Shown in pieces: positions 1,771 through 57,290 of a DNA stretch of 64,000 nt. Position 1 is the stretch's first letter; every line of letters starts with the position of its first letter. Under the pieces are notes generated by a model. That model was not told the origin of the DNA and did not search any database. It worked only from the letters and a program-made list of their open reading frames with translations. Both the position numbers and the translations under genes were made by a program. Location of the stretch: positions 160,386-224,385 of the forward strand of contig CAYPNP010000003.1 in the NCBI GenBank assembly GCA_964412195.1, given 5' to 3'. Source of the DNA: an uncultured Acidobacteriota bacterium (GTDB lineage Bacteria > Acidobacteriota > JAAYUB01).

Positions 1771-2262
1771 GTGACCATGACCAAGCGTGTGATCCTGAGC
1801 GCCTTGCTCCTGCTGACCGGGCTGGCGGCCGTGGCGTCGGCCCAGGGCGAGGACCCGGCCTGGGGCGAGCAGCGGAAGGCCATCCTGCTGGGCGATCTGA
1901 AGGCCGGATTGAACCTGTCCGACGATCAGATGGCCGCGCTGGACGCCCTCTGCCTGGCCTACAAGGCGGAGGCCATCGCCAAGGCCCAGGAAATCGGCGA
2001 CATCCTCCTGCAGATCCGCGAATTGAGCCGCGACTGGCAGGCCAATTTCACGGCGATTGTCCACCTGCAGTTCGACCTCTACGTCAAGGAGTTCGAGCTG
2101 AACGAGCTGAAGCGGGCCCTCGCCGACGATGTGGGCGGAGTGCTGGCCGCGGAGCAGGCGGATGCGAAGCCCCTGGTGCTGCACGTCCTGGATGAGGCTT
2201 ATCGCCTCACGCCCAGGCGCCCGGGCCCGCGCACCGGGCAGGAAGGCGGCGACACCGACTGA
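1771..2262 (+). CDS. secreted hypothetical protein with LTxxQ-like motif (CpxP/Spy-like?)
   Basis: N-terminal signal peptide LLLLTGLAAVASAQG; helical, LSDDQ motif; function unknown. Confidence 0.45.
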   Translation: MTMTKRVILSALLLLTGLAAVASAQGEDPAWGEQRKAILLGDLKAGLNLSDDQMAALDALCLAYKAEAIAKAQEIGDILLQIRELSRDWQANFTAIVHLQFDLYVKEFELNELKRALADDVGGVLAAEQADAKPLVLHVLDEAYRLTPRRPGPRTGQEGGDTD

Positions 2263-2317
2263 GCCGGCGGAATCCCAGACGTTCTCCGGGCGGGCGCTCT
2301 CTGGCCCGCCCCTTTTT

Positions 2318-2497
2318 TTTCAAGCTGAACATTGAACATCGAACATTGAACATCGAACATCGAAGGAAAACCCGCGGCAGCAGGGTTTGAACGGACGAAA
2401 ACAGTCTGGAACGGCGGGGTACTTGCTCCAGTCTTCGAATCACTGGATCTACTTCAAAGTTCGATGTTCAATGTTCGATGTTCAATGTTCGCTTTGA
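2318..2497. repeat. inverted pair of CGAACAT heptamer arrays flanking about 90-bp core (MITE-like or hairpin)
   Basis: 2318-2362 aacattgaacatcgaacattgaacatcgaacatcgaa is the reverse complement of 2452-2497 ttcgatgttcaatgttcgatgttcaatgttcg. Confidence 0.7.
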
Positions 2498-2541
2498 CGA
2501 TCTGACTATCCAGCAAAACTCTTCTCTGGGATAATGGCGCC

Positions 2542-3462
2542 ATGGAACTCTACGGCGCCATCGACATCGGGACCAACTCCATCAAGGGTGTGCTGTTGGC
2601 CCGCGACTCCGCCGGCGGCTGGCGGGTGGTGGACGACCGCGTGGAGATCGCCAAGCTGGGGCAGGGGGTCCGGGAGACCGGCTGCCTCCGGGCCGAGGCC
2701 ATGGACCGGGCCGCCGCCGCCGTGGGCCGGCTGGCCGACGTCCTGCGCAGGGCGGGGGCGGGCCGCCTGGTGGCGGTGGGCACCATGGCCCTGCGGAACG
2801 CCGCCAACGCAGGGGAATTTTTAGAGCGGCTCCGAGCGGAATGCGGCCTTGAAGTCGAGGTGGTGTCTGGCGAGGAGGAGGCACGCCTCTCCTTCCTGGG
2901 CGCCGCGGGGGGACGGCCCGGCGCCGGCGGGCCGGTGGCCGTGACGGACATCGGCGGCGGCAGCACCGAGTTGATCCTCGGCCGCGGCGCCGCCCTCGAA
3001 TCGAAGGCGAGCCTGGACCTCGGCGCCCTGCACCTCACCGAGCGGTTCCTGCCCTCGGACCCGCCCGCGGAGGCCGAGGTGGAGGCCGCCCGGGCGCACG
3101 TGGGCGAAGCAGTCGCCGGCTTGCCAGTCCCGCCGGAAAACTCGCTCCTGGTGGCCATCGGCGGCACGGCCACCACCCTGGCGGCGGTCGTCCACCGGCT
3201 GGCCGCGTACGACGCCGCGATCGTCCATGGTACCGTGCTGGCGCGGGCGACGGTCGACGGCCTGATCGAGCGGTTCCGGAGCGTTCCCCTGGCGATGCGG
3301 CGGACCATCCCGGGCCTGCCGCCGGAGCGGGCCGACATCATCCTGGCGGGCAGCCTGATCCTGCGCGGCGTGATGGACCGGGTCGGCGCCGGCGAGGTGA
3401 CGGTCAGCGACTGGGGCCTCCGGCACGGCGTCATCCTCGATCGCTATACCCCTGTCAGTTGA
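2542..3462 (+). CDS. Ppx/GppA-family phosphatase (exopolyphosphatase / pppGpp phosphohydrolase)
   Basis: N-terminal AIDIGTNSIK actin-like ATPase motif of the Ppx/GppA family; 306 aa. Confidence 0.8.
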   Translation: MELYGAIDIGTNSIKGVLLARDSAGGWRVVDDRVEIAKLGQGVRETGCLRAEAMDRAAAAVGRLADVLRRAGAGRLVAVGTMALRNAANAGEFLERLRAECGLEVEVVSGEEEARLSFLGAAGGRPGAGGPVAVTDIGGGSTELILGRGAALESKASLDLGALHLTERFLPSDPPAEAEVEAARAHVGEAVAGLPVPPENSLLVAIGGTATTLAAVVHRLAAYDAAIVHGTVLARATVDGLIERFRSVPLAMRRTIPGLPPERADIILAGSLILRGVMDRVGAGEVTVSDWGLRHGVILDRYTPVS

Positions 3463-3622: not shown

Positions 3623-5530
3623 TCAACCTTTCCCATCCACCCGGGCCTTCCGTTCCTCCAGGTATTCCCAGCGCTCGTACGCGGCGGCCAGTTCCGCTTC
3701 CAGGTCTTGCAGACGGGAGTTGAAGGCGGCGACATCCCGGTTGGCGGTGCGGTACAGACCGGGGTCGACCAAAGCCCGGCAGACGCGCTCCTTCTCCGCT
3801 TCCAGCTCGTGGATCCTGTCCGGCAGGGCTTCCAATTCCCGCTCTTCCTTGTAGCTCATCCTGTTGTCCGGCGGCCGGGATTTGGGAGGCGGTTTTTTCG
3901 CAGGCGGCTTTTCGGCCACGGTTTCGGAAGTGTCCCTCTGACGAAGCCAGTCGTCGTATCCGCCCACGTATTCCTCGATCTTCCCATCCCCGGCAAACAC
4001 CAGGGTGCTGGTCACCACATTGTTCAGGAACGCCCTGTCGTGGCTGACCAGCAGCAGGGTGCCTTCGAATTCGAGGAGCACCTCCTCCAGCAGTTCGAGG
4101 GTTTCGATGTCCAGATCGTTGGTCGGCTCGTCGAGCACCAGCACGTTGGCCGGCTGGGTGAACAGGCGGGCCAACAGCAAGCGGCACCGTTCCCCGCCGG
4201 AGAGGCTCTTCACCTTGGCCCGCGCCTGTTCCGCGGAAAAGAGGAATCGCTGCAGGTAGCCGATCACGTGCTGGCTCACCCCCCGGATCGTCACCGTGTC
4301 GTGGCCGCCGGCCACGTTGTCGAACACGGATTTCTCGCTGTCCAGTTGATTACGCAACTGGTCAAAGTAAAGGACTTCCAGGTTGACTCCATGGCGGACG
4401 CTCCCCTTCTGCGGCGCGAGGTCGCCCAGCAACAGGCGCAGCAGCGTGGTTTTTCCGCAGCCGTTGGGCCCGATGATGCCCACCCGGTCCCGGCGCAGGA
4501 TGGTGGCGGAAAAATCGCGGATCATGGGCTTGTCGGCGTACTGGTAGGAAATGTGCTCCGCCTCGATGACCAGCTTGCCGGATCGCTGTCCGGACTGCAT
4601 GGCCATCCTGACTTGGCCGGGACGCTCCTGCCGCTGCCGCCGCTGTTCCCTCATCTTCATCAGGGCCCGGACGCGGCCCTCGTTCCGGGTGCGGCGGGCC
4701 TTGATGCCCTGGCGGATCCATTCCTCCTCGATGGCCAGCTTCTTGTCGAAGAGCCGGTTCTGGCTCTCTTCCGCGGCCAGGCTTTCCTCCTTGCGCCGGA
4801 GGAAGGTGGCGTAATCGCACGGCCAGTCGAACAGCCGGCCCCGGTCGATTTCCACGATCCGGCTGGCCAGCTTCTGCACGAGCACCCGGTCGTGGGTCAC
4901 CATCACGAGGGTGCCGCCGTATTCCGCCAGGAAGCTCTCCAGCCAGGCGATTGCGTCAATGTCCAGGTGGTTGGTGGGTTCGTCGAGCAGGAGGATGTCC
5001 GGCCCTGAAACCAGGGCTTGGGCCAGCAGGGTGCGACGCTTCAGCCCGGTGGACAGGGTCGTGAATTCCGTGTCGGCCGGCAGCGTCATGCGGGCGATGA
5101 CCGTGTCGACGCGGCGGTGGATTTCCCACCCTTGCTCCGCGTCCAGCTGATGGCTGAGGCGTTCCAGGCGGGCCATCAGCTTAAGTTCATCCCCGCGGTG
5201 CTCCGCCAGCAGGGCGCTGGTCTGATGGTAATCGGCCAGGAGCCGGCCTTTGGCGGCGAGCCCGGAGGTGACGATGTCGAAGACAGTGCCGGCGGTGCCG
5301 GTGGGGATCTCCTGGTCCAGGCGGGCGGTGGTGACACCCTGCCCGCGGCTGACGCTGCCGCTGTCCGGGACGATCTCCCCGTGGATCAGCTTCAACAGCG
5401 TGGTCTTGCCGCTGCCGTTGCGCCCCAGCAAGCAGACCCGCTCGTGGCGTTCGATGTGCATTTGGACGTGGTCCAGCAGCAGATGGCCGCCGTAGCCGAT
5501 GCACGCGTCTTTCACGCTGATGAGCGCCAT
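3623..5530 (-). CDS. ABC-F family ATPase (Uup/EttA-like; two ABC cassettes plus C-terminal coiled coil)
   Basis: Two Walker A motifs (GRNGSGKTTLL, GPNGCGKTTLL) and two LSGGE signatures; basic coiled-coil C-terminus; start MALISVKD chosen downstream of the ORF-track start. Confidence 0.85.
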   Translation of the reverse strand: MALISVKDACIGYGGHLLLDHVQMHIERHERVCLLGRNGSGKTTLLKLIHGEIVPDSGSVSRGQGVTTARLDQEIPTGTAGTVFDIVTSGLAAKGRLLADYHQTSALLAEHRGDELKLMARLERLSHQLDAEQGWEIHRRVDTVIARMTLPADTEFTTLSTGLKRRTLLAQALVSGPDILLLDEPTNHLDIDAIAWLESFLAEYGGTLVMVTHDRVLVQKLASRIVEIDRGRLFDWPCDYATFLRRKEESLAAEESQNRLFDKKLAIEEEWIRQGIKARRTRNEGRVRALMKMREQRRQRQERPGQVRMAMQSGQRSGKLVIEAEHISYQYADKPMIRDFSATILRRDRVGIIGPNGCGKTTLLRLLLGDLAPQKGSVRHGVNLEVLYFDQLRNQLDSEKSVFDNVAGGHDTVTIRGVSQHVIGYLQRFLFSAEQARAKVKSLSGGERCRLLLARLFTQPANVLVLDEPTNDLDIETLELLEEVLLEFEGTLLLVSHDRAFLNNVVTSTLVFAGDGKIEEYVGGYDDWLRQRDTSETVAEKPPAKKPPPKSRPPDNRMSYKEERELEALPDRIHELEAEKERVCRALVDPGLYRTANRDVAAFNSRLQDLEAELAAAYERWEYLEERKARVDGKG

Positions 5531-7695: not shown

Positions 7696-8907
7696 TCACG
7701 CCGGGGGGCAGATTTCCGCCAGCCGCCGAGCCAGCTCCAGTCCGAGGGCGTAGCACTTGGCGAGGTCATCCTCGTTGGGCACGTAGACGGCCATCACTCC
7801 GTCGGAGACCGGCTCTACGCCCATGTCCTTGAGCAATTCGTTGATCTGGGGCACCGCCTTGGGCGCCCAGCCGTAGGAACCGAACGCGGCTCCGAGGCGC
7901 CCCTTCGGCTTGAGCCCGCGCAGGTAGGTCAGCACGTCGGCCACAGTCGGGAACATCTGGCTGTTGAGGGTAGGCGAGCCCACCGCCAGGACGCCGGCCT
8001 CCAGCATCTCGGTGGCCACCTCGCTGCGGTGGCAGCCGCCCAGCGGCATCACCACCGGTTTGGCGCCACCCGCCTTGAGGCCGTCGGCGACCGCCCGGGC
8101 CATCCGGTCGGTGCTGCCCCACATCGTGTCGAACACCACCACCGCCTTCCGCGTGGGCGCCTGGGCGGCCCAGCGGGCGTAAAGCTCGAGGATCCGCTTC
8201 GGGTTGGCGCGCCACACCGGGCCGTGGTCCGGGGCGATCCGGCGGAAGTCGAGGCCGAGCTGGCCGACCTTTTCCAGCAGCTTCTGGACCAGGTTGGAGT
8301 ACGGCAGGAGGATGTTGGCGTAGTATTTGGCCGCTTCGTACTCCAGGACCCATGGGTCGACCTCGTCGTCGAAGCGCTGGCTGGTGGCCAGGTGCATGCC
8401 GAAGGCGTCCTGAGAGAAGAGCAGCTTCTCCTGTTCGAGGTAGGCGATCATGCTGTCGGGCCAGTGGAGCATGCGGGTCTCGTGGAAGAGCAGGGCGGTG
8501 TCTCCCAGCGGGATCCGGGTCCCATCCGCCACCGCCTCCACCGGCAGGTCGGGCCGGAAATGCTTCTGCAGCGCCTTGACGCCCATGGGCGAGGCGAAGA
8601 CCTTGTCGGGCCGGATGATGTCCATCACCTCCGGCAGGCAGCCGGTGTGGTCCAGCTCGGAATGGTTGGACACGATGTAGCGGACCAGCCGTGGATCGAC
8701 CACGGAGGCGATCCTGGCCAGCAGCTCCTCTTGGAATGGCTTCTTGACCGTGTCGATGAGGGTGACCGGGTCGCCCATCACCAGGAATGCGTTGTAGGTG
8801 GTGCCGCGCTCCGTCGCGTATCCGTGGAAGTCCCGGATGGCCCAGTCGATGGCGCCCACCCAGTAGACCCGGTCCGTGACGGGGATGGCTTTGAATACCT
8901 TTTCCAT
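7696..8907 (-). CDS. flavodiiron protein (FprA/ROO type: metallo-beta-lactamase-like diiron domain plus flavodoxin domain)
   Basis: 403 aa; diiron His/Asp ligand motif HSELDH-type; C-terminal flavodoxin-like region; RBS GGAGAG. Confidence 0.85.
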   Translation of the reverse strand: MEKVFKAIPVTDRVYWVGAIDWAIRDFHGYATERGTTYNAFLVMGDPVTLIDTVKKPFQEELLARIASVVDPRLVRYIVSNHSELDHTGCLPEVMDIIRPDKVFASPMGVKALQKHFRPDLPVEAVADGTRIPLGDTALLFHETRMLHWPDSMIAYLEQEKLLFSQDAFGMHLATSQRFDDEVDPWVLEYEAAKYYANILLPYSNLVQKLLEKVGQLGLDFRRIAPDHGPVWRANPKRILELYARWAAQAPTRKAVVVFDTMWGSTDRMARAVADGLKAGGAKPVVMPLGGCHRSEVATEMLEAGVLAVGSPTLNSQMFPTVADVLTYLRGLKPKGRLGAAFGSYGWAPKAVPQINELLKDMGVEPVSDGVMAVYVPNEDDLAKCYALGLELARRLAEICPPA

Positions 8908-9035
8908 TTCTTCAATACTCTCCGTTCAATTCACACACTCGACCGGGACGGACATCGGAAATCGGATTTCGGACATCGGCCTTTTACAGCCGATCCCCGA
9001 TGTCCGAAGTCCGATGTCCGACAATCGTGCCCGGG

Positions 9036-9581
9036 TTATGCCATCGCCGTGCCGCCGTCAAATCCCGTGCGCTCCTGCTCCCGGAACCAGGCGGCGGGAT
9101 CGGCCAGGAAGGCCTTCATCTCGGACAGGGCGGTGTGATGGCCCGTCTCTTCCTCGATCATCCGCTTGATGAATCCCTTTTCCACCTCCTCGGTGGCGGC
9201 CTTCAGCTGGTCCTCGTAGAAGCGGACCGAATTGAACTCGAAGGTGATGCCCACGTCGAGGGCCTCGAGGTCGCCGGTGCCGGCCTGGATGTTGTGGCCC
9301 TGGGCCGCGGCCAGGTCGCGGAACACCTTGCCGAGGTCGGCGTGGCCTTCGCCGAAGCTCTTCCACTCCTCGGACCAGGTGTGCTGGGTGTTCAGCTGCT
9401 CGTAGATCTTCATAATCCGCTGGACGTGGATGTCCTCGTCCTTCTTCAACATGGTGAATATCTTCACCCCGAGCTGGTTCTTGCAGGTGGTGATGGCCTT
9501 CTCGTAAAACGCCTTGCCCTTCTCCTCCATCTCGAGGGCGGTGCTCAGCATGGCCAGGGCGCGGTTGAAATGATGCGTCAT
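9036..9581 (-). CDS. rubrerythrin-family ferritin-like diiron protein (erythrin domain only), paralog D
   Basis: Two ExxH pairs (EEKGKAFY/DEDIH and EFNSVRFY/EETGHH) give a four-helix-bundle diiron signature. Confidence 0.7.
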   Translation of the reverse strand: MTHHFNRALAMLSTALEMEEKGKAFYEKAITTCKNQLGVKIFTMLKKDEDIHVQRIMKIYEQLNTQHTWSEEWKSFGEGHADLGKVFRDLAAAQGHNIQAGTGDLEALDVGITFEFNSVRFYEDQLKAATEEVEKGFIKRMIEEETGHHTALSEMKAFLADPAAWFREQERTGFDGGTAMA

Positions 9582-9593
9582 GGGATGACCTCC

Positions 9594-10094
9594 TTATGGT
9601 TTTTCCAGTTTCATCAACTCTTCGATCAGGGTGGTGATGTGGGACATCTCCTCCTGGATGATCTTGTCGACTTTGCCTCGGCCCCGGTCGACGGGGACCA
9701 TCTCCTTGATCCCGACATAGAAGGCGATGGACTCCTTCTCCAGGCCGATGGCCGTCTCGAGGATCTGGGCGAGGGATGTGCCGCGCGAGATCGTCTTGCC
9801 GGGGTCCTTGTCCGCGCGGAAGACGTGCTTGTCCACCCAGGCGCGGAGATACCTCAGCGCTTCCTGCCCGGGGTCGTTCAGCGTCTTGAACATGGCGTCG
9901 CCGATGAGGGACTTCCGGAGCGCCTGGAAGGTCATCTCGTGGACGTCCTCCATCGCGGCGAGCTTCTGCAGCAACTCGTTGGCCTGCGCCCCGACGGACT
10001 GGGCGGCGGCGGCCCGGTAGAACTTCGCGCCGTTGCGCTCGAATTGCTCGGCCATTTCAAAGATCTCGTCGGCATTCAGCAAACCGCTCATCAT
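9594..10094 (-). CDS. rubrerythrin-family ferritin-like diiron protein, paralog C
   Basis: ExxH pairs (ERNGAKFY/MEDVHE, LEKESIAFY/EEMSH); start MMSGLL chosen instead of the long N-terminal extension in the ORF track. Confidence 0.7.
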   Translation of the reverse strand: MMSGLLNADEIFEMAEQFERNGAKFYRAAAAQSVGAQANELLQKLAAMEDVHEMTFQALRKSLIGDAMFKTLNDPGQEALRYLRAWVDKHVFRADKDPGKTISRGTSLAQILETAIGLEKESIAFYVGIKEMVPVDRGRGKVDKIIQEEMSHITTLIEELMKLEKP

Positions 10095-10188
10095 AGCCTC
10101 CTTGTGCCAGGGTGCCGGGAACCGGCTGCCGGATCCCCTGGCCGGTTCCCGCCGCCCGAACGGGGCGGGCCGCTTCCCGGAAAGGTCT

Positions 10189-10641
10189 TCAGTTTTCGGG
10201 CTGGACAATCCGGTCGTACTCCAGCTCGAAACGCAGCTTGTGCTTGGCTTCCTCCTGGGCCAGCGCCAGCAGGGTCCGGCCAAGGGCCGGATCGGCGGCG
10301 CGATCGGCCATGTCGGTGTACAGCCGGTAGGCGGCCTTTTCCATCTTCATGGCCAGCACCAGGGCGTCCCCATAGGTCATATCCGGGGACGGATCGCCGA
10401 CGACGGTGTAGTCGGCGATCTTCAGGTCGAGGATCTTCTCGCGGGAGGGCTCCAGCGCCTGCCCCGCCTTGATCTGGAGCAGCTTGGCCTTGTGGCCCAG
10501 CTCCTCCCGGGCGAAATCCTCGAATGCCTGTTTCATCCAGGGTCGGTCCATTCTTTCGGCCAGCCCGTTGTAGAACACGGCCGAGGCGAGTTCCTTGCCG
10601 ATGGCGAAGTCCAGGATCTCGTCGACGGAGTTGAAATTCAT
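10189..10641 (-). CDS. rubrerythrin-family ferritin-like diiron protein, paralog B
   Basis: ExxH pairs (ELASAVFY/EELGHK, MEKAAYRLY/EEAKHK). Confidence 0.7.
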   Translation of the reverse strand: MNFNSVDEILDFAIGKELASAVFYNGLAERMDRPWMKQAFEDFAREELGHKAKLLQIKAGQALEPSREKILDLKIADYTVVGDPSPDMTYGDALVLAMKMEKAAYRLYTDMADRAADPALGRTLLALAQEEAKHKLRFELEYDRIVQPEN

Positions 10642-10653
10642 GGCGGCCCCGGG

Positions 10654-11151
10654 CTAGTACGGCCAGAACTGGTTGTCGTTCCAAACGCTTTCCTGCAGCG
10701 CCCGGTCCAGGGAGGCCAGCAGGTGGAGGTGGGTTTTCTCCCAATCGGCCAGCCACTGGTAAATTTCCTTCTCGACGGGATCGCCGGCGGTGGTCGCGCG
10801 GTCGGAGTAGAACCGCACGGCGCGGTCTTCCATGGCCATCGCGGCCGAGATCGCCGCCGCCTCGTAGCCCGCGGCGGCCACCTTGCCGCGGATCTCCCCG
10901 CTGATGACGGCCTCGGCGAAATCCTCGCCCTTGACGTGCTTGACGGGCTCAAACTGACCGCTTTTGCCCAGGCTCTTCATCTGGCGGGAGAGGATGTCGA
11001 TGTGGCTGTCCTCTTCCGCCGACATGGTCTGGAACACTTTTTTGATCGGGGCGCTGGTGGCTTCGCGGGCGTTGTGCTCGTAGAAGGCCTTGCCTTTCAT
11101 TTCCAGCAGGATCGCGCCTTTGAGGATCTCCATTGCCTTCGACTTGTCCAT
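10654..11151 (-). CDS. rubrerythrin-family ferritin-like diiron protein, paralog A
   Basis: ExxH pairs (EMKGKAFY/EEDSH, MEDRAVRFY/EKTHLH); start MDKSKAMEIL. Confidence 0.7.
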   Translation of the reverse strand: MDKSKAMEILKGAILLEMKGKAFYEHNAREATSAPIKKVFQTMSAEEDSHIDILSRQMKSLGKSGQFEPVKHVKGEDFAEAVISGEIRGKVAAAGYEAAAISAAMAMEDRAVRFYSDRATTAGDPVEKEIYQWLADWEKTHLHLLASLDRALQESVWNDNQFWPY

Positions 11152-11219
11152 GTGCCGTGCTCCTCTGCAAGTATTTGGGCCATTATAGCAGAGGCCGGCG
11201 CGGAGAGCCAACCGGGAAT

Positions 11220-11460
11220 TGCGGGCCGCGGCGTGCCCGGTAATTGATGCCCAATGACCGATGACCGGTGAACGATGACCGGCGACGGGCCATGCCGACT
11301 GCGAAATGGCATGCCTGCTTCATCGATATCGGAGTCGGTTTTCGCAGTCGATTCCAAGATCGGTTCCTGACGGCGATACCGATGCCTCCGGTCCCGAGCC
11401 CCCAGACCCGAGCCCCCAGATCCGATGTCCGACATCCGAATTCCGATGTCCGCACCGGTT
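11220..11460. repeat. intergenic heptamer arrays (CCGGTGA/CCGATGA family and CCGATGT/CCGAAGT family)
   Basis: ccaatgaccgatgaccggtgaacgatgaccggcgacggg and cccagatccgatgtccgacatccgaattccgatgtccg. Confidence 0.7.
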
Positions 11461-11505
11461 GCGGCGGAGCGGGGAATCCGCTACCATGGGGGCGGGAGCG
11501 GCACG

Positions 11506-12789
11506 ATGGAACACGACGAGATCCTGCACTGGCTGACAGAGACCGGCGAAGCGGCGCTGGAGCAGCTCTGGCGCCGGGCCGACGAAGTCCGGCGCCGGCA
11601 CGTCGGCGACGCGGTCCACCTGCGCGGGCTGGTGGAGTTCTCCAACCACTGCGCCCGGCAGTGCGGGTACTGCGGCATCCGGGCCGGCAACACCCGGCTG
11701 GCGCGCTACCGGATGAGCGCCGACGAGATCCTGGAGTGCGCCCGGCTGGCCGCCCGGCTGGGCTACGGCACGGTCGTCCTGCAGTCCGGCGAGGACCCCG
11801 GCACCCGGCGCGCCTGGATGGCGGACGTGGTCCGGCGGATCCGCGCGGAAACGGGGCTGGCGGTGACGCTCAGCCTGGGTGAGCGCAGCGACGCCGACCT
11901 GCGGGCGTGGCGCGAGGCCGGCGCCGGCCGGTACCTCCTGCGGTTCGAGACCTCCAACCCGGTTCTCTTCCGGAAGATCCACCCGCCCCGGCGCGGCCGC
12001 GGGAGCGACCGGATCGCCCTGCTGCGTCGGTTGCGAGGCCTCGGCTACGAGGTCGGCAGCGGGGCCATGATCGGTATCCCCGGCCAGACGTACGGTGACC
12101 TCGCCCGGGACCTCGAGCTGTTCAGGGAGCTGGACCTGGACATGATCGGAGTCGGGCCGTTCCTCCCTCATCCTGCTACGCCTCTGGGTCAACCAGAGGA
12201 CGCGGGGACGGGGGGACGGGGAGACGGGGGGACGAGCCGGATCGAACATCGAACATCGAACATTGAACATCGAACATCGAACTCAATCCGCGATCCGCAC
12301 TCCGCAAACCGGGAACTCACCACAAAGGCACAAAGAACACAAAGACAAGATTGGGATTCCAATTCGAAATCCGCGATCCGCAATCCGAGATCCGATGTCC
12401 GAGATCCGATGTCCGAAGATCGCACTCCGCATTCCGCACTCCGCACTCCGCATGATTCCGAACAGGTTCCCAACTCGGAATTGATGACCTACAAGGTGGT
12501 GGCGCTGGCCCGGCTGATCTGTCCGGACGCCAACATCCCCAGCACCACGGCGCTGGCCACGGTCAACCGGGAGTCCGGACGCGAGCTGGGTCTGCAGCGG
12601 GGCGCCAATGTCGTCATGCCCAACCTGACGCCGCCGCGCTACCGGGCCGGTTACGAAATCTACCCGGCCAAGGCCTGCCTCCAGGAAACGCCGGAGCAAT
12701 GCCACGGCTGCCTGCTGGCGCGCATCGCGTCCATCGGCCGGACCGTGGGCGAGGGGCCGGGGGAGTCTCCCCGATTCAGGAAGCGGTGA
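11506..12789 (+). CDS. radical SAM protein of the HydE/BioB/ThiH family carrying an in-frame insertion of about 97 codons of heptamer-repeat origin (function may be disrupted)
   Basis: EFSNHCARQCGYCGIR CX3CX2C radical SAM motif; HydE-like C-terminus ICPDANIPSTTALAT...GANVVMPNLTP; start MEHDEIL chosen because the first 27 codons of the ORF lie in repeat DNA. Confidence 0.65.
   Translation: MEHDEILHWLTETGEAALEQLWRRADEVRRRHVGDAVHLRGLVEFSNHCARQCGYCGIRAGNTRLARYRMSADEILECARLAARLGYGTVVLQSGEDPGTRRAWMADVVRRIRAETGLAVTLSLGERSDADLRAWREAGAGRYLLRFETSNPVLFRKIHPPRRGRGSDRIALLRRLRGLGYEVGSGAMIGIPGQTYGDLARDLELFRELDLDMIGVGPFLPHPATPLGQPEDAGTGGRGDGGTSRIEHRTSNIEHRTSNSIRDPHSANRELTTKAQRTQRQDWDSNSKSAIRNPRSDVRDPMSEDRTPHSALRTPHDSEQVPNSELMTYKVVALARLICPDANIPSTTALATVNRESGRELGLQRGANVVMPNLTPPRYRAGYEIYPAKACLQETPEQCHGCLLARIASIGRTVGEGPGESPRFRKR
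12190..12480. repeat. intragenic repeat module: CGAACAT, CCGAGAT/CCGATGT, CACAAAG and CACTCCG heptamer arrays inserted in frame in the radical SAM gene
   Basis: atcgaacatcgaacatcgaacattgaacatcgaacatcgaac translates as IEHRTSNIEHRTSN; ccgagatccgatgtccgagatccgatgtccga; cgcactccgcattccgcactccgcactccgca. Confidence 0.8.
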
Positions 12790-12794
12790 GACAC

Positions 12795-12945
12795 TGGATC
12801 GTCTCTCTCGTGTGAATTGATTCAATTGCGGATTGCGGATTGCGAATTGAACGGATTGCGGATTTCGGATTGCGGATTGAAACCTAGGCTTGTCTTTGTG
12901 TCCTTTGTGCCTTCGTGGTGAGTTCCCGGCTTGCGGCTTGAGGTT
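12795..12945. repeat. GCGGATT heptamer array plus CTTTGTG array, inverted relative to the intragenic module
   Basis: ttgcggattgcggattgcgaattgaacggattgcggatttcggattgcggatt; 12893-12930 is the reverse complement of 12311-12350. Confidence 0.7.
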
Positions 12946-12950
12946 TTCCA

Positions 12951-13826
12951 GTGATCTGGCTGCCGCTGGCGCTTCTGTGCGCCTTCTCCCTGGCCACCAG
13001 CGACGCCCTGGTGAAGAAGTTGTTCCCGAGCCGGGACGCCGTCGCCGTGGCCTGGCTGCGCCTGTTGCCGGGGATTCCGCTGCTCTGGACCCTGGTGGCG
13101 CTGCATCGACCGCCGGTGCCCGGACCTGACTTCTACTGGGCCACCGCCCTCGCCGTGCCGCTGGACACCTTCGCGCTGGTCCTCTACATCCGGGCAATCC
13201 AGTCCTCGCCGCTGAGCCTGACCCTGCCGCTGCTCGCATTAACTCCGGCGCTGCTCCTGGTCATCCCCGCCGCGCTCCTGGGGGAACGGCTCTCTCCCGC
13301 CGGCGCCGCGGGCGTCCTGCTGATCAGCCTGGGCTGCTACGCCCTGAACATCGGCTCGGCCCGCTGCGGATTGCTCGAGCCGCTGCGGGCGCTGGCACGC
13401 GAGAAGGGCGCCCGGCTCATGCTGGCGGTGGCGGTGATCTACGGCTGCACCTCCACCCTGGGCAAGATCGGCGTCACCGCGGCCAGCCCGCTGCTCTTCG
13501 GCGCGGCCTACTTCACCGCCATGGGCGCGCTGGTGACGCCGTTCGCGCTGGCGGGAAGGCGGCGGGCCGCCCTGGCGGCGGTCCGGCAGGAGCTGGGGAC
13601 GTCGCGGGCGCTGCTACCCGGCCTGGCGTACGGCGCCATGATCGTGTTCCACATGTTGGCGCTGAGCCTGGCCCCGGTGGCCTACATGATCGCGGTCAAG
13701 CGGCTCAGCCTGCTGATCGGGGTCCTGTACGGCCGCTTCCTGTTCGGCGAGGGGCGCTTCCGCGAACGGATCGCCGGCGCGGTACTGATGCTCGCCGGCG
13801 TCCTGCTCATCGGCCTCTTCCCCTGA
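12951..13826 (+). CDS. EamA/DMT-superfamily transporter
   Basis: About 10 predicted transmembrane helices; duplicated EamA-like halves; GTG start. Confidence 0.7.
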   Translation: MIWLPLALLCAFSLATSDALVKKLFPSRDAVAVAWLRLLPGIPLLWTLVALHRPPVPGPDFYWATALAVPLDTFALVLYIRAIQSSPLSLTLPLLALTPALLLVIPAALLGERLSPAGAAGVLLISLGCYALNIGSARCGLLEPLRALAREKGARLMLAVAVIYGCTSTLGKIGVTAASPLLFGAAYFTAMGALVTPFALAGRRRAALAAVRQELGTSRALLPGLAYGAMIVFHMLALSLAPVAYMIAVKRLSLLIGVLYGRFLFGEGRFRERIAGAVLMLAGVLLIGLFP

Positions 13827-19280: not shown

Positions 19281-19691
19281 ATGAAAAAGATCCTGGCAAT
19301 CCTGAGTGTGATGATGGTGTTCGGAATCGCGGCCCTGGCGGGCGATGCGCCGGCGGCGGCCCCGGCCCAGACCCAGGCGGCGGTGCAGACCCCGGCCCAG
19401 GCGCAGACCCAGGCCGTCGCGCAGGCGCAGGCCAAGGCCCGGCAGGGCACCCGGTACGTCGACGCCAACGGCAACGGGGTGTGCGACAACTTCGACAACG
19501 GGACGCCGCAGGGGCGGATAAACCGGGGCGGCCAGGGCAAGGCCGGCCAGGGGGCCGGAAACGGCGTCAAGGCCCGGGACGGTTCCGGCAGCGGTCAGCG
19601 CCACGGGTGGGGCAAGGGTGGCGGCGCCGGACGCGGCACCGGCCAGGGCGGCGGCCAGCGGCTCCGCGACGGTTCGTGCGGGAAGCGGTAG
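19281..19691 (+). CDS. small secreted Gly/Gln-rich protein
   Basis: RBS AAAGGAGGAAGACC then ATG; signal peptide MKKILAILSVMMVFGIAALA; low-complexity QAQ and GQG repeats. Confidence 0.5.
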   Translation: MKKILAILSVMMVFGIAALAGDAPAAAPAQTQAAVQTPAQAQTQAVAQAQAKARQGTRYVDANGNGVCDNFDNGTPQGRINRGGQGKAGQGAGNGVKARDGSGSGQRHGWGKGGGAGRGTGQGGGQRLRDGSCGKR

Positions 19692-21084: not shown

Positions 21085-21099
21085 TCTCAGCTCAAAGTA

Positions 21100-21235
21100 C
21101 GCCGGGCAAACCATTTGTCATTTGTCATTGGCCAATTGCCATTTTCCATTTTTCCTTAACGGCCGGATCCTGACTCCGATTTTCTGAAATGAACAATGAC
21201 AACTGGCAAATGGCAAATGACAAATGGATTGCTTA
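21100..21235. repeat. AT-rich palindromic ATTTGTC/ATTGGCC heptamer element at convergent junction
   Basis: gtcatttgtcattggccaattgccatttt ... aacaatgacaactggcaaatggcaaatgacaaatgg, inverted arms; the same family recurs at 1555-1608. Confidence 0.65.
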
Positions 21236-21262
21236 CCGGACTTTGCGACTTTGCAGTGGACG

Positions 21263-23539: not shown

Positions 23540-23930
23540 GGTGAGGGGTGACGGGTGACGGGTGACCGATAACCGGTGCCGTCGCTGTTCGTGCTCGTAA
23601 TCGTAATCGAAACAATGAATTACACACAGAATCGCAGATTCCGCGGCGTTTTCATGAGCAATGCGTTGCCACAAGCAAGCGGGAAGTACCCTGCCGGTCG
23701 GGGTACCTCCATCCTGCCGGTTTTGAGGTCGTGCCCGTTGAGCGGGATCGTTCTGATGGTCGTGTACGCAGCTGGATCTCGGGTCTCGGGACTCGGGGCT
23801 TGGAATCAGGGCTCCGGATCCAGCCCCAAGCCCCCGGTCTCCTGTACTGAGCTCCGAGCCCCGAGCCCCGAGCCTCCAGCCTCGAACCCCGAGTCCCCAA
23901 ACCCGAGCCTCGTGGTAGAATACGCCGGCC
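23540..23930. repeat. composite intergenic repeat region: CCGGTGA array, CGTAATC array, TCGGGGTACCTCC core and CCCGAGC array
   Basis: gtgacgggtgacgggtgaccgataaccggtg; gtgctcgtaatcgtaatcg; 23698-23710 tcggggtacctcc; ccgagccccgagccccgagcc. Confidence 0.75.
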
Positions 23931-25139: not shown

Positions 25140-25418
25140 GATGGCTCGATAATGCGGAGTGCGGAGTGCGGAATGTGGAGTGCGCGCAGTAGAGAAGTTG
25201 TCACTCGAAATCCGAGTCGAGTCAGGCAGTTGCGTTTTCCACCGGATGGATGGTGCTCCTGACAGATACTCTAGATTTAATTCCCGCTTTGCACTCCGCA
25301 TTCCGCACTCCGCACTCCGCATTATGGGAGATCCCATCAACCGCCGATTCGTGGTGAATTGACATCCTGCAAGATTTTCGGTAGAGTGCGGCCTGCAAAA
25401 TCGACGAGGTGAGACGCC

Positions 25419-28714: not shown

Positions 28715-28900
28715 TTGCGAATTGCGAATTGCGAATTGAGTCCGTGCTTACTCGAAAATAGAAACTTCCGATCGTACTCGTCGATCGTAATCGTGCTCGT
28801 AATCGTAATCGTAATCGCAACAATCAATTACACGCAGAGACGCAGAGTCCGCAGAGACAATCCCTAACGCGGATGAACACGGATTCCCGCCGATCCGGCC
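28715..28900. repeat. composite repeat: GCGAATT array, CGTAATC array, CGCAGAG array
   Basis: ttgcgaattgcgaattgcgaattg; cgtgctcgtaatcgtaatcgtaatcg; cacgcagagacgcagagtccgcagagac; homologous to the module at 23580-23650. Confidence 0.75.
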
Positions 28901-35892: not shown

Positions 35893-36132
35893 GTGAGTCG
35901 ATTCGGAGTGCGATTCCGGACCTCGGACCTCGGGTTTCGGACCTCGGCGGAACGCCCCACAACCGATCTTCGATAATTGACGCCGGCATCCACGGTTTGA
36001 TGCCCGATGTCCGACATCCGAAGTCCGATGTCCGAAACCCGCTGGATTCGGGATCATCAAGAAAAAACAGTTGACAGCATGGGGCCGGATCTGTAATATT
36101 CTTCGTTCTTGTCGACGAATTCTGGAGGAATC

Positions 36133-36339: not shown

Positions 36340-36480
36340 ACCATTCACCACAAAGACACAAAGAGCACAAAGAAATCCTTTCTGAGGTAAGCAGCTCAGA
36401 AAGGATTTGTGTTTTATTCAACGAGTGCATCTCGGCAGCTGCCTGCCTTTGTGTCCTTTGGGCCTTTGTGGTGAATCCTA
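36340..36480. terminator. rpmB terminator hairpin flanked by inverted CACAAAG heptamer arrays
   Basis: aaatcctttctgaggtaagcagctcagaaaggattt hairpin followed by tgtgtttt; caccacaaagacacaaagagcacaaag upstream and its inverse ctttgtgtcctttgggcctttgtggtg downstream. Confidence 0.65.
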
Positions 36481-38699: not shown

Positions 38700-38900
38700 T
38701 TCAAACGCTCGAAGAGGGGCTCGGGACTCGGGGCTCGGGATTCGAGGCTTGGGTCTGGGTGCATCGTATTCCAAACCCAAACCCTGCATATCGATCTCCG
38801 CATACTCAACTCCGACATATTCCAACCCCAACCTCCAACCCCGAGCCCCGAGTCCCGAGCCCCGAACCCCGAGTCCCGAGACCCGCCTCGACTCCTCATG
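38700..38900. repeat. CCCGAGC/CCCGAGT heptamer arrays in inverted orientation around an AT-richer core
   Basis: gggctcgggactcggggctcgggattcgagg ... ccccgagccccgagtcccgagccccgaaccccgagtcccgagacc. Confidence 0.75.
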
Positions 38901-41317: not shown

Positions 41318-41490
41318 CAATTGCGGATTGCGGATTGCGGATTGAGGATTGAACCGCAAACCGCGCAAAGGATGCAAAGCGGAATTCAACGCTGATCCAC
41401 GCAGATTGATTATGATCTGATATGATCATTTAACAGGTTTGGATCATAAAGATCATAAAATATCCGCGTGAATCTGCGTTGAATGAGATC
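41318..41490 (+). mobile_element. composite MITE-like dispersed element, copy 1: GCGGATT array, CAAAG-rich segment, about 100-bp AT-rich core with terminal inverted repeats
   Basis: Core ttcaacgctgatccacgcagattgattatgat...ggatcataaagatcataaaatatccgcgtgaatctgcgttgaat is homologous over its whole length to 55441-55545 (second copy, opposite orientation). Confidence 0.75.
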
Positions 41491-55439: not shown

Positions 55440-55630
55440 CCATTCAACGCAGATCCACGCTGATCTATTATGATTAATTAGGATCATTTAAAAGGTCTGG
55501 ATCATAAATGATCTTAAAAAGTCTGCGTCCATCTGCGTCGAATTCCCCTTTGCGTCCTTCGCGCCTTTGCGGTTCGATTCGAAATTCGCAATTCGCAATC
55601 CGCAATCCGCAATCCGCAATCCGCAATCCC
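55440..55630 (-). mobile_element. composite MITE-like dispersed element, copy 2 (inverted relative to copy 1)
   Basis: ttcaacgcagatccacgctgatctattatgattaattaggatcatttaaaaggtctggatcataaatgatcttaaaaagtctgcgtccatctgcgtcgaat followed by cgcaatccgcaatccgcaatccgcaatcc. Confidence 0.75.
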
Positions 55631-55633
55631 CAA

Positions 55634-56785
55634 TCAGAGGGAGCGCTCTAAAATCTCTGCCAATTCAGCCGGGGTCAGCGCCACCGGATTGCCCTGCATG
55701 CTGCTGGCCACCCGGGCGCGGTCCACCAGCGTGGGGATGTCGGTGGCGGTGACTCCGTAGGAGCGCAGGGGCGGGATCCGCAGGTCCCGGCACAGGCCGT
55801 CCACCCAGGCGATGGCCTTGGCGGCGCCGGGCGCCTGGCCGGTCAGGAGCCGGCCGAGCGAATCCATCCGGCGCAAGGCGTCGCTGCCGGGATCCCGCTC
55901 CCGCAGCGCCCGGTGGTTGGCTTCCAGCACCCGCGGCAGCAGCCGGGCGCACGCGGCGCCGTGGGGCGCCGGAAACATGCCGCCGAGGGGCGCCGCCAGG
56001 CCGTGCACCGCCCCCAGCCGGGCGTTGGCCAGGGCCATCCCGCCCTCGAGGCTCGCCAGGGAGAGGTCCTCGCGGGCGGCCGCGTCGTAACCGTCGAGGC
56101 AGGCGCGGCGCAGGCTGCGGGACACCCGGGGGATGCCGTCGCGGCACAGCCCGTCGACGAGCGGATTGGGGCGGTTGCAGAGGAACGGCTCCACCAGTTG
56201 AGTCAGGGCGTCTAGGCCGGTGCTGGCGGTGATCTCCGGGGGCAGGCCGTAGGTCAGTTCGGGGTCCACCAGGGCCACCCGGGGCAGCATCAGCGGGCTG
56301 CGCAGGCTGACCTTGACTTTGTGCTCCGGCGAGGCAAGCACGGCGTTGCGGGTGGCTTCCGATCCGGTGCCAGCGGTGGTCGGGACGGCAATCAGGGGAA
56401 CGGATGGCTTGACCAGCGGCCGGCCCTGGCCGACGACTTCGAGATACTCGAGCGGATCGCCGCCGTTGGCCAGCAGGGCCGCGACCGCTTTGGCCGTGTC
56501 CAGCGCGCTGCCGCCGCCGAAGCCGATGACCAGGTCGGTCCCTTCCGCGTCGGCCTGCGCCAGCGCCGTCCGGACCGTGTTCACCGACGGCTCGCCGGCG
56601 GACGAGAACACGGCGGCGGGCAGGCCGGCCTCCCGGAGCAGGGCCAGGAGCCGGCCGGCCCGGTCCGGCGAGGCGCCCGTGACCACCAGCGGCTTCCGCC
56701 CGAGGGAAGCGGCCAGCGGCCCGATTTCCTTCAAAGAGCCGGCCCCGAACAGGATCCGTTGCGCGGTGGCGAATTCGAATGGCAT
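55634..56785 (-). CDS. iron-containing (group III) alcohol dehydrogenase
   Basis: GGGSALDTAK NAD-binding motif; conserved His metal ligands; 383 aa. Confidence 0.85.
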   Translation of the reverse strand: MPFEFATAQRILFGAGSLKEIGPLAASLGRKPLVVTGASPDRAGRLLALLREAGLPAAVFSSAGEPSVNTVRTALAQADAEGTDLVIGFGGGSALDTAKAVAALLANGGDPLEYLEVVGQGRPLVKPSVPLIAVPTTAGTGSEATRNAVLASPEHKVKVSLRSPLMLPRVALVDPELTYGLPPEITASTGLDALTQLVEPFLCNRPNPLVDGLCRDGIPRVSRSLRRACLDGYDAAAREDLSLASLEGGMALANARLGAVHGLAAPLGGMFPAPHGAACARLLPRVLEANHRALRERDPGSDALRRMDSLGRLLTGQAPGAAKAIAWVDGLCRDLRIPPLRSYGVTATDIPTLVDRARVASSMQGNPVALTPAELAEILERSL

Positions 56786-57099: not shown

Positions 57100-57290
57100 C
57101 CTCCTCGGACCGGTGACGGATGACCGGTGACCGATCATGCTCACTCAAAAATAGAGAGCTTTCAACCAGCTTCGTGCTCGTGCTCGTATGGTACTCGTAA
57201 TCGTACTCGGGCCCGACGATCTGATCGATGACCGTTGACCGGTCACCCGTCATCCGTCATCGGTCATCTGTCACCGGTCCGGTTTCCCCA
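57100..57290. repeat. CCGGTGA/CCGATGA arrays (inverted pair) flanking a CGTGCTC/CGTAATC array
   Basis: ggtgacggatgaccggtgaccgatc ... cgtgctcgtgctcgtatggtactcgtaatcgtactcg ... gaccggtcacccgtcatccgtcatcggtcatctgtcaccggtcc. Confidence 0.75.

Follow-up and report, generated by a model that had tools for sequence, protein, structure and literature searches.

We report here that hydE, the gene for the radical SAM maturase of [FeFe]-hydrogenase (positions 11506–12789, plus strand; 427 amino acids [aa]), carries an in-frame block of repetitive DNA in a 64-kb stretch of the genome of an uncultured, Gram-negative Acidobacteriota lineage with 65% G+C (hereafter the window, to which all genome-wide statements refer). 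The insert (12198–12453) is a mosaic of one array of 8-mers, four arrays of 7-mers and a core of 65 nucleotides (nt). It probably represents a lineage-specific composite repeat module that is an old resident of a single HydE loop, is translated with the enzyme and has been remodelled by homology-driven copying, a reading that we prefer with some reservation.

The hydE gene itself is bona fide and intact. Its product scores 306.6 bits against TIGR03956, above the curated equivalog threshold of 254.6 bits, with a match in two stretches split at the insert, and it aligns with Thermotoga maritima HydE (TmHydE; PDB 3ciw/3iiz) at E = 1.3e-90, likewise in two stretches. Query residues 18–230 correspond to residues 32–241 of the TmHydE chain and residues 327–419 to 248–339, which places the extra residues between TmHydE positions 241 and 248. 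In an AlphaFold 2 (AF2) model based on 28 homologues, the barrel is predicted with confidence and residues 232–312 have predicted local distance difference test (pLDDT) values below 50; the insert follows the sixth strand (E213–218) and precedes helix 325–338. The model superimposes on 3cix with a target-normalised template modelling score of 0.88 and a root-mean-square deviation of 2.6 Å, and, together with the 3ciw match, reveals the full (beta-alpha)8 radical SAM barrel of TmHydE. The CX3CX2C motif is intact, with C49, C53 and C56 invariant in the homologue alignment, as is the C-terminal cysteine triad. The central claim of the original prediction, made from the DNA letters without database searches, that an otherwise undamaged HydE accommodates repeat DNA, in frame, within a tolerant loop, is thus borne out by the family profile, the 3ciw alignment and the AF2 model.

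The true start codon is the ATG at 11506 (MEHDEIL...), given that the NCBI record holds the 427-aa product and not a 454-aa one and that every orthologue starts at the same methionine, with MEHDEIL or MDHDEIL. The 454-aa open reading frame (ORF) from the ATG at 11425 was accordingly rejected. This spurious ATG lies within intergenic arrays upstream of hydE (11393–11452, plus strand), in which Tandem Repeats Finder located CCCGAGCCCCCAGA (2.4 copies) and CCGATGT (4.6 copies). The 27 codons that had been described as a repeat-derived beginning of the protein are therefore upstream intergenic DNA, read as coding through a longest-ORF artefact.

The loop segment between HPATPLG and QVPNSELMTYK (12190–12462, plus strand; 91 codons, 273 nt) is hydrophilic, Cys-free and predicted to be disordered, and its translation, ...HPATPLG-QPEDAGTGGRGDGGTSRIEHRTSNIEHRTSN...RTPHSALRTPHDSE-QVPNSELMTYK..., contains no stop. 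Tandem Repeats Finder placed its arrays, all on the plus strand, where they had first been noticed; its array units are 7 and 8 nt long, with 72–95% matches. The conserved 5′ end of the module is a G-rich octamer array (GGACGGGG, 4.6 copies, 12198–12234) that encodes AGTGGRGDGG and is found in five of the six orthologues, and its peptide junction recurs in an insert of GDP-mannose 4,6-dehydratase (P0269, see below). It is followed by 6.0 copies of CGAACAT (= ATCGAAC; 12241–12282, 94% matches), read as IEHRTSN IEHRTSN and kept at 4–6 copies in all orthologues. The next portion (12283–12387), which also forms the upstream arm of an inverted repeat, comprises AATCCGC-type heptamers, the 65-nt core (12295–12359, with CACAAAG units) and more AATCCGC heptamers, with an array of CACAAAGAA (2.9 copies) at 12321–12345. 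CCGAGAT/CCGATGT arrays (12365–12421; a 14-mer in 2.6 copies, 95%), which have a direct-repeat relative upstream of hydE at 11401–11455, are read as RNPRSDVRDPMSE, and the module ends with 4.6 copies of CGCACTC (12421–12452), read as RTPHSAL RTPH.

Several other identities for this DNA were considered and rejected. Folded alone, the insert is no more stable than its shuffles (z = +0.17) and is not palindromic, and a repeat search found no inverted repeat inside 12190–12480, which argues against a palindromic element within the insert. An intein was rejected because Pfam recognises only Radical_SAM in HydE and no intein domains, and an intron or a known RNA family because Rfam gave no match at the gathering threshold or at E <= 1. 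A promoter or an intrinsic terminator inside the insert was likewise rejected: the sole promoter-like match within 11000–13200 is a minus-strand site that precedes hydE (11182–11211), and no terminator-like site was found in the same interval. An antisense ORF of 94 aa (12189–12473, minus strand) and a +1 ORF of 73 aa (12263–12484, plus strand) are by-products of the stop-free arrays. As a separate observation, the octamer block, which also opens the GDP-mannose 4,6-dehydratase insert, has four or more runs of G4–6 on the coding strand (GGGGACGGGGGGACGGGGAGACGGGGGGAC) and might form a G-quadruplex in hydE DNA or mRNA.

The position of the insert is one where HydE tolerates variation. We surveyed 58 HydE loci from unbiased genome and metagenome scans in which, among the matches listed, this loop could be delimited. 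The loop between the HPxTPL motif and the ELMTYK helix spans 11–28 aa in 56 of them and 41 and 57 aa in the other two, and its sequence shows no conservation; by the same measure the loop of the HydE studied here is 97 aa long. Many HydEs at 55–68% identity hold other inserts of 40–100 aa at the same site. The module occupies this hypervariable surface loop, which connects barrel strand 6 to helix 6, with the variability and the low pLDDT pointing to the surface position; the inserted loop is predicted to be disordered and may well be near-neutral for the enzyme. The 97 codons originally proposed as inserted are thus a repeat-built loop as described, but about 17 of them belong to the native loop, so that the excess is about 80 codons.

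That a module built from 7- and 8-nt units is open in the frame of hydE is a matter of the whole and not of its parts. Since 7 shares no factor with 3, heptamers in a pure array yield the same 7-residue repeat in all three frames, whereas the frame downstream depends on the number of units, and the frame is hence kept by the sum of the arrays rather than by each of them. The idea that the heptamers preserve the frame by themselves does not hold; divisibility by three applies only to the segment as a whole (273 nt). The strand orientation in hydE is the one that encodes polar residues: in the coding frame the insert has a mean Kyte–Doolittle hydropathy of −1.7, 10% hydrophobic residues, no Cys and a net charge of 0, compared with a hydropathy of −0.2 to +0.4, 36–43% hydrophobic residues and 4–8 Cys in the three reverse-strand frames. 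A HydE from a Sumerlaeota metagenome-assembled genome (GCA_026398575.1; L086) carries 228 nt of inserted DNA in this loop, composed of different heptamer units. Its ATTGACG array would read TGA in frame once per 21 nt, and at 3691–3724 the unit is ATTTACG and the codon reads TTA, consistent with selection against the stop. Selection on HydE probably removes insert versions that are out of frame, contain stops or are hydrophobic.

Comparison with relatives extends this filter over a considerable evolutionary distance. The loci of the four closest relatives (78–90% identity) are syntenic, with rubrerythrins, hydE, eamA (missing in L004) and a sigma-54 regulator, and all four orthologues contain repeat-built inserts at the same site, of 213, 324, 228 and 201 nt versus 273 nt here. 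All five lengths are multiples of three, and frame 0 is open in all five, compared with 4 of 10 for the other forward frames. Nei–Gojobori dN/dS values are 0.11–0.27 before the insert (228 codons) and 0.07–0.20 after it (100 codons), with dS between orthologues ranging from 0.14 to about 0.9–1.1; the low downstream values imply that the C-terminal third is read in the same frame in all lineages. In the DNA alignment, the 5′ block (G-rich octamers, then 4–6 CGAACAT units) is common to all five and was therefore present in their common ancestor, whereas further along, in the middle and towards the 3′ end, the inserts have different cores and arrays. The insertion is ancient, and its content has turned over since.

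These comparisons also bear on how the insertion was first understood. A recent insertion does not fit a 5′ block shared by lineages with dS up to about 0.9. The possibility had been raised that close relatives carry the same segment; they do carry inserts at the same site, but these are repeat-built and differ in length and content, so the repeat origin stands and the recent colonisation falls. The site is filled in 4/4 syntenic orthologues, and there was no closely related empty site to compare. A scan of GTDB genomes found no representative HydE above 71% identity, the lineage being absent from the species representatives. For RelA, the best matches with a name come from Acidobacteriota, at 54–56% identity. 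In a sixth relative (L160), which has the same architecture, hydE (2028–3315 of a 55.7-kb contig) is called as three ORFs through 1-nt indels. We read these as assembly errors, because they occur also in conserved non-repeat sequence and the contig name suggests a long-read assembly.

The original alternative, a recently inactivated pseudogene that is open by chance, can be set aside as extremely improbable, and so can an artefact of assembly, an intein, an intron and a segment bypassed in translation. Repeats do break assemblies (contigs L001 and L085 end in or near arrays), and stop-free heptamers leave several frames open. Nevertheless, five independent assemblies from different samples share both the site and the frame, the downstream dN/dS values indicate strong purifying selection, the Pfam and Rfam searches support neither intein nor intron, and a bypassed or spliced segment would require neither a length that is a multiple of three nor a stop-free frame.

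Equally, the frame data bear on whether the arrays could act as a contingency (phase-variation) switch, in which gain or loss of one 7-nt unit by slippage would turn HydE off or on. The ORF does contain several arrays of 4.6–6 units, a one-unit change would shift the downstream frame while leaving the array peptide unchanged, and in L160 the frame has been lost by the 3′ end of the insert. However, all five clean assemblies are in frame, the CGAACAT copy number is nearly constant (4–6) across dS of 0.14–0.9, the arrays are short and interrupted, and the L160 indels affect non-repeat conserved sequence as well. We consider such a switch very unlikely. Contingency loci share with hydE tandem units that are not multiples of three within coding sequence, but here none of the five clean orthologues showed frameshifting length variation, and their arrays lack both length and purity. 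The hosts of contingency loci are usually surface or restriction-modification genes, whereas hydE encodes a metabolic maturase.

The building blocks of the insert are those of the surrounding intergenic DNA, as had been proposed. A scan for arrays of at least 4 copies with at least 85% self-match and periods of 4–12 found 16 period-7 arrays in the window versus 0 in 50 shuffles; periods 6 and 8 gave two arrays each and the remaining periods none. All array families of the insert recur between genes: CGAACAT at 2327–2364 and, inverted, at 2453–2490; CCGATGT at 8949, 8997, 11421 and 35999; CACTCCG (CGCACTC) at 25153–25184 (inverted) and 25291–25321; AATCCGC at 12825, 41320, 51448 and 55583; and CACAAAG at 36349 and 36445. 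By inspection, no other long array lies inside a recognised gene of the window. The intergenic arrays often form inverted pairs separated by 8–120 nt, in at least seven spacers (pairs at 2320/2445, 8949/8989, 21093/21187, 25149/25291, 36343/36447, 38709/38841 and 57108/57236), and, because the two arms of each pair carry the same unit, they point to inverted duplication or arm-to-arm correction.

The module in hydE also has a partner outside the gene, in the hydE–eamA spacer. This downstream arm (12814–12943, plus strand) consists of an ATTGCGG array (12825–12879) and then the reverse complement of the core (12879–12943), which thus occurs twice in the window, and it ends 8 nt before the GTG start (12951) of the next gene, eamA. 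Positions 12295–12359 pair with 12879–12943 (65 nt, 85%) and 12357–12387 with 12852–12882 (84%), and the AATCCGC units beside the core pair with the ATTGCGG array at 12825–12882. No inverted repeat in the window is longer, and among the array-based ones it alone has arms separated by coding sequence (450–520 nt). The same arrangement is present in L002 (arms 975–1122 and 1609–1749, 87–89%), in L003 (69 nt, 83%) and, more weakly, in L160 (32–36 nt), and is absent from L004, which lacks eamA and has a hairpin of its own in the spacer; the spacers of L003 and L160 are additionally self-pairing.

The two arms do not evolve independently. When the inserts are compared with the reverse-complemented spacers of the different genomes, the best match is the spacer of the same genome in the window and L002, which is not the case for L003. 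A four-way comparison of the core (two arms in each of two genomes) yielded 39 invariant, 0 arm-specific and 11 singleton columns, and 4 columns in which both arms are altered within one genome (AAAG to AGAG). Changes on both arms, in the absence of arm-specific ones, show that the arms evolve in concert; they are equally expected from gene conversion between the arms and from selection for pairing, and with two genomes the two causes cannot be told apart.

Selection for pairing leads to another explanation, namely that the insert is kept for its pairing with the spacer, the final third of hydE being enclosed by a long-range helix in RNA or a cruciform in DNA. Such a structure would control how stable the mRNA is, how RNase III processes it or how hydE and eamA are translated, with coding capacity as a side constraint. 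We regard both the pairing itself as the reason for retention and these regulatory roles as rather improbable. The length of the inverted repeat, its coding spacer and its recurrence in L002, L003 and, weakly, L160 speak for this explanation, as do the predicted RNA folds from insert to spacer with the arms paired (z = −11.6 for 12270–12950 of the window, −14.1 for L002 and −5.4 for L003), the four double changes that preserve arm complementarity with no arm-specific difference, and the end of the 3′ arm close to the eamA start codon. Gene conversion between the arms would, however, yield the same double changes; L004 has retained its insert although both the arrangement and eamA are missing; the spacer is self-pairing as well in L003 and L160; and translating ribosomes would melt the upstream arm. 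Two more specific roles were rejected, namely sequestration of the eamA ribosome-binding site as a conserved mechanism, because in L003 the region upstream of the eamA start falls within a local inverted repeat of the spacer, and inversion of the hydE 3′ end as a DNA switch, because there is neither a recombinase nearby nor an alternative C-terminus and all assemblies have the same orientation.

The module appears to recur in frame in conserved enzymes of related organisms, judging from protein sequence comparisons. A word-indexed protein search with the insert peptide gave no match, and an exhaustive phmmer search with the 91-residue peptide returned 55 proteins at E <= 1e-3, 3 of which contain real domains according to Pfam; the remaining matches are low-complexity ORFs without a recognised domain, so that most of the 55 are probably mis-calls across intergenic arrays. 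P0281 is a fragment of HydE as found in L160. An NCBI contig of 188.5 kb encodes P0273, a 532-aa membrane glycosyltransferase of the PMT_2 family, in which residues 367–429, located between hydrophobic segments, are colinear with the insert (EHRTSNIEH..ANQQLTTEAQRTQ..NPQSAIRNP; 59% identity over 66 residues at the peptide level, E = 3e-18). P0269/P0313 is GDP-mannose 4,6-dehydratase (Gmd; full length 490 aa, 516 bits against Escherichia coli Gmd), in which a 128-residue insert replaces the 9-residue loop 290–298 (1db3), in frame and with conserved flanks. The Gmd insert begins with GGTGGRGDGGKESERRTSNVERRTP, the same octamer/CGAACAT junction as in HydE, where L004 reads GDGGKENERRTSNINHRTP at the peptide level. 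Related intragenic copies, for which the original prediction had suggested a check, were thus found in Gmd and in the PMT_2 glycosyltransferase. The loop site of HydE also holds other units: another metagenomic HydE has a CTGCCTA array there, and the L086 insert described above combines an inverted pair of ATTGACG (4.4 copies) and AATCGTC (5.1 copies), with 34-nt arms that are 97% complementary and a 104-nt spacer (z = −6.6), with a subsequent ATCCGCA array (5.6 copies). The L086 module is therefore self-complementary, unlike the insert studied here.

Recurrence in unrelated genes could instead signify a discrete non-autonomous mobile element, of the kind of miniature inverted-repeat transposable elements or Rickettsia palindromic elements (RPEs), that is open by chance and for which hydE, gmd and the PMT_2 gene were independent targets. 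In favor of such an element, the order of CGAACAT array, AATCCGC units, core and AATCCGC array is the same in HydE and P0273, the octamer/CGAACAT junction is shared by HydE and Gmd, the core and AATCCGC units are present as a reverse-complement copy in the spacer (12814–12943), and the Sumerlaeota insert is a hairpin-forming inverted pair. On the other side, no terminal inverted repeats were seen when both ends of the insert in the window were inspected, the insert does not form a palindrome by itself, the five orthologues differ in ends and internal content and have only sub-blocks in common, no transposase was found beside hydE or among about 20 larger ORFs of the window scanned with NCBIfam, and the hydE copy is ancestral rather than a recent hop. 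On balance we consider a discrete element unlikely.

The comparison with RPEs was already part of the original prediction, and it is apt for the outcome but not for the element. RPEs are discrete palindromic elements with a conserved consensus per family (PMC10969869). As with RPEs, a dispersed repeat of non-coding type, about 100–250 nt long, resides in frame in unrelated conserved enzymes at fold-compatible sites (the HydE loop, the Gmd loop and, in the PMT_2 protein, a site between hydrophobic segments) and adds a peptide segment to several host genes without destroying them. By contrast, the insert in the window is a mosaic of 7- and 8-nt tandem arrays with variable ends and content, shows no terminal inverted repeats on inspection, and is self-complementary not internally but with a partner in the 3′ spacer.

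Homology-driven copying is preferred over transposition on the grounds that neither element termini nor, in the ORFs scanned, a transposase were found, that variation proceeds block by block and that the arms evolve in concert. The module, in which the G-rich octamer and CGAACAT arrays are followed by a unique core flanked by AATCCGC-type arrays and by additional heptamer arrays, would have lodged long ago in the single hypervariable surface loop of HydE. Transcription and translation are expected to run straight through it, which would give a hydrophilic, Cys-free, disordered loop of 80 residues and leave the radical SAM barrel unharmed. Purifying selection would then act as a filter for lengths that are multiples of three, absence of stops and the polar strand orientation, while units and whole blocks could be gained and lost and the loop could exchange sequence with the 3′ spacer through the 65–150-nt inverted repeat. 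The exchange between arms and the spread to Gmd and PMT_2 would both depend not on a transposase but on gene conversion or on switching of templates where forks stall.

Several points weigh against this scenario. The same block junction in three unrelated host genes would fit a discrete mobile element equally well. The retention of 4–6 CGAACAT units across dS of about 0.9 is steadier than expected of a neutral, slippage-prone array, and could point to a function of the loop or of the structure formed by its nucleic acid. The longest inverted repeat of the window, with very strong predicted long-range RNA pairing, could be selected and not a by-product. The L160 indels are probably assembly errors, with real decay as the alternative. 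Finally, translation through the insert is argued from the evolutionary record of the frame, that is, from sequence comparison.

Among other known repeats, the closest parallels are heptameric simple sequence repeats (SSRs), such as GGGAATC of Xanthomonas, and the short tandemly repeated repetitive (STRR) sequences of Nostoc and Calothrix, GGGGA(C/T)T, which are mainly intergenic, often form convergent pairs and vary in length between close relatives; arrays overlapping ORFs account for 7–11% in Xanthomonas and about a third in Nostoc (PMC4692102). The heptamers of the window resemble them in forming over-represented head-to-tail arrays that are mostly intergenic, often in inverted pairs and of differing length among close relatives. 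They differ in that there are many unit families, one per spacer, instead of one G-rich consensus, and in the multi-array composite in the middle of an enzyme gene, which several species have in common and which has a pairing partner in the spacer. We know of no description of the repeats of this lineage.

The amino acid tandem repeats (aaTRs) of Borgs are fast-evolving ORF repeats that encode mostly disordered, Cys-depleted peptides and are accompanied by intergenic repeats; the ORF repeats are perfect and have unit lengths divisible by three (PMC9879509). The HydE insert has in common with them a repeat-made, disordered and Cys-poor peptide and intergenic repeats in the same genome, but its units are 7 and 8 nt long, its frame results from the sum of arrays, and it is imperfect and old. 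Repetitive extragenic palindromic (REP) sequences and bacterial interspersed mosaic elements are similar in being intergenic, hairpin-forming inverted pairs, some of which in the window lie near intrinsic terminators (2289–2320 with 2320–2497; 36345–36477), although the arms here are tandem heptamers of many families without a conserved REP consensus. REPs are extragenic by definition. No REP-associated tyrosine transposase was found among the window ORFs scanned. Taken together, the module is a variant of the known colonisation of genes by repeats, in which the many-family units and the conserved composite within an enzyme are new.

The genes around hydE encode rubrerythrins, a flavorubredoxin-like protein, EamA and a sigma-54 regulator. 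The adjacent region 7696–11211 is an oxidative-stress cluster, with the flavorubredoxin-like protein and several rubrerythrins, whose synteny is retained in L001, L004 and L160. A scan of roughly 20 of the larger ORFs in the window revealed no hydG, hydF or hydA.

Further repeats were recorded in the window. The spacers with array pairs (2320–2497, 8949–9021, 21093–21245, 25149–25325, 35917–36035, 36343–36476, 38709–38891 and 57106–57281) each have their own unit family, for example GAACATC, CGGACAT, CCATTTG, TGCGGAG, CACAAAG, GGGACTC and GACCGGT. Hairpins with T-runs that resemble intrinsic terminators lie beside or between heptamer arms at 2289–2320 and 36374–36420, a hint that array pairs flank transcript ends. 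A composite of about 180 nt, itself palindromic, occurs twice in opposite orientation (41320–41490 and 55440–55640; 76–83% identity); it contains an ATTGCGG array, 8-mers of the CGCAAAGG type and an AT-rich core with GATCATAAA repeats, and gave no match in Rfam. Hexamer arrays of ATCGTA/CTCGTA followed by a conserved block (AACAATSAATTACACRCAGA) at 23590–23640, 28770–28858 and 57172–57209 form another dispersed spacer family, which is shared with the orthologous contig L004 (7735–7800). At 19358–19440, a hexamer/18-mer repeat (GGCCCA-type, 13.8 copies, 62%) within a small protein with a signal-peptide-like N-terminus encodes an Ala/Gln/Thr-rich stretch (APAQTQAAVQTPAQAQTQAVAQAQAKA); its period is a multiple of three, unlike that of the heptamers.

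To conclude, hydE offers a natural example of non-triplet (7- and 8-nt) tandem repeats domesticated as protein sequence in conserved enzymes, with recurrence in HydE, Gmd and a glycosyltransferase and with an insert old enough to show the selective filter on frame, stops and strand orientation. In HydE, the segment that links strand 6 to helix 6 tolerates insertions of 40–110 residues and may be useful for tagging or engineering this maturase, which is difficult to study. Such inserts split genes in assemblies and mislead ORF callers. More broadly, the locus exposes an undescribed intergenic repeat system with one heptamer family per spacer, arranged in inverted pairs, and the hydE copy, whose two arms are divided between gene and spacer, provides a natural handle on the origin of these pairs and on their arm complementarity. 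A bolder reading, which we consider a long shot, is that the heptamer modules constitute an active homology-driven copy-paste system that installs disordered loops in conserved enzymes, and that the hydE arm and its spacer partner form a regulatory hairpin. If so, the bracketing structure would regulate hydE and eamA, and the same DNA would serve both as coding sequence and as the arm of a regulatory hairpin.

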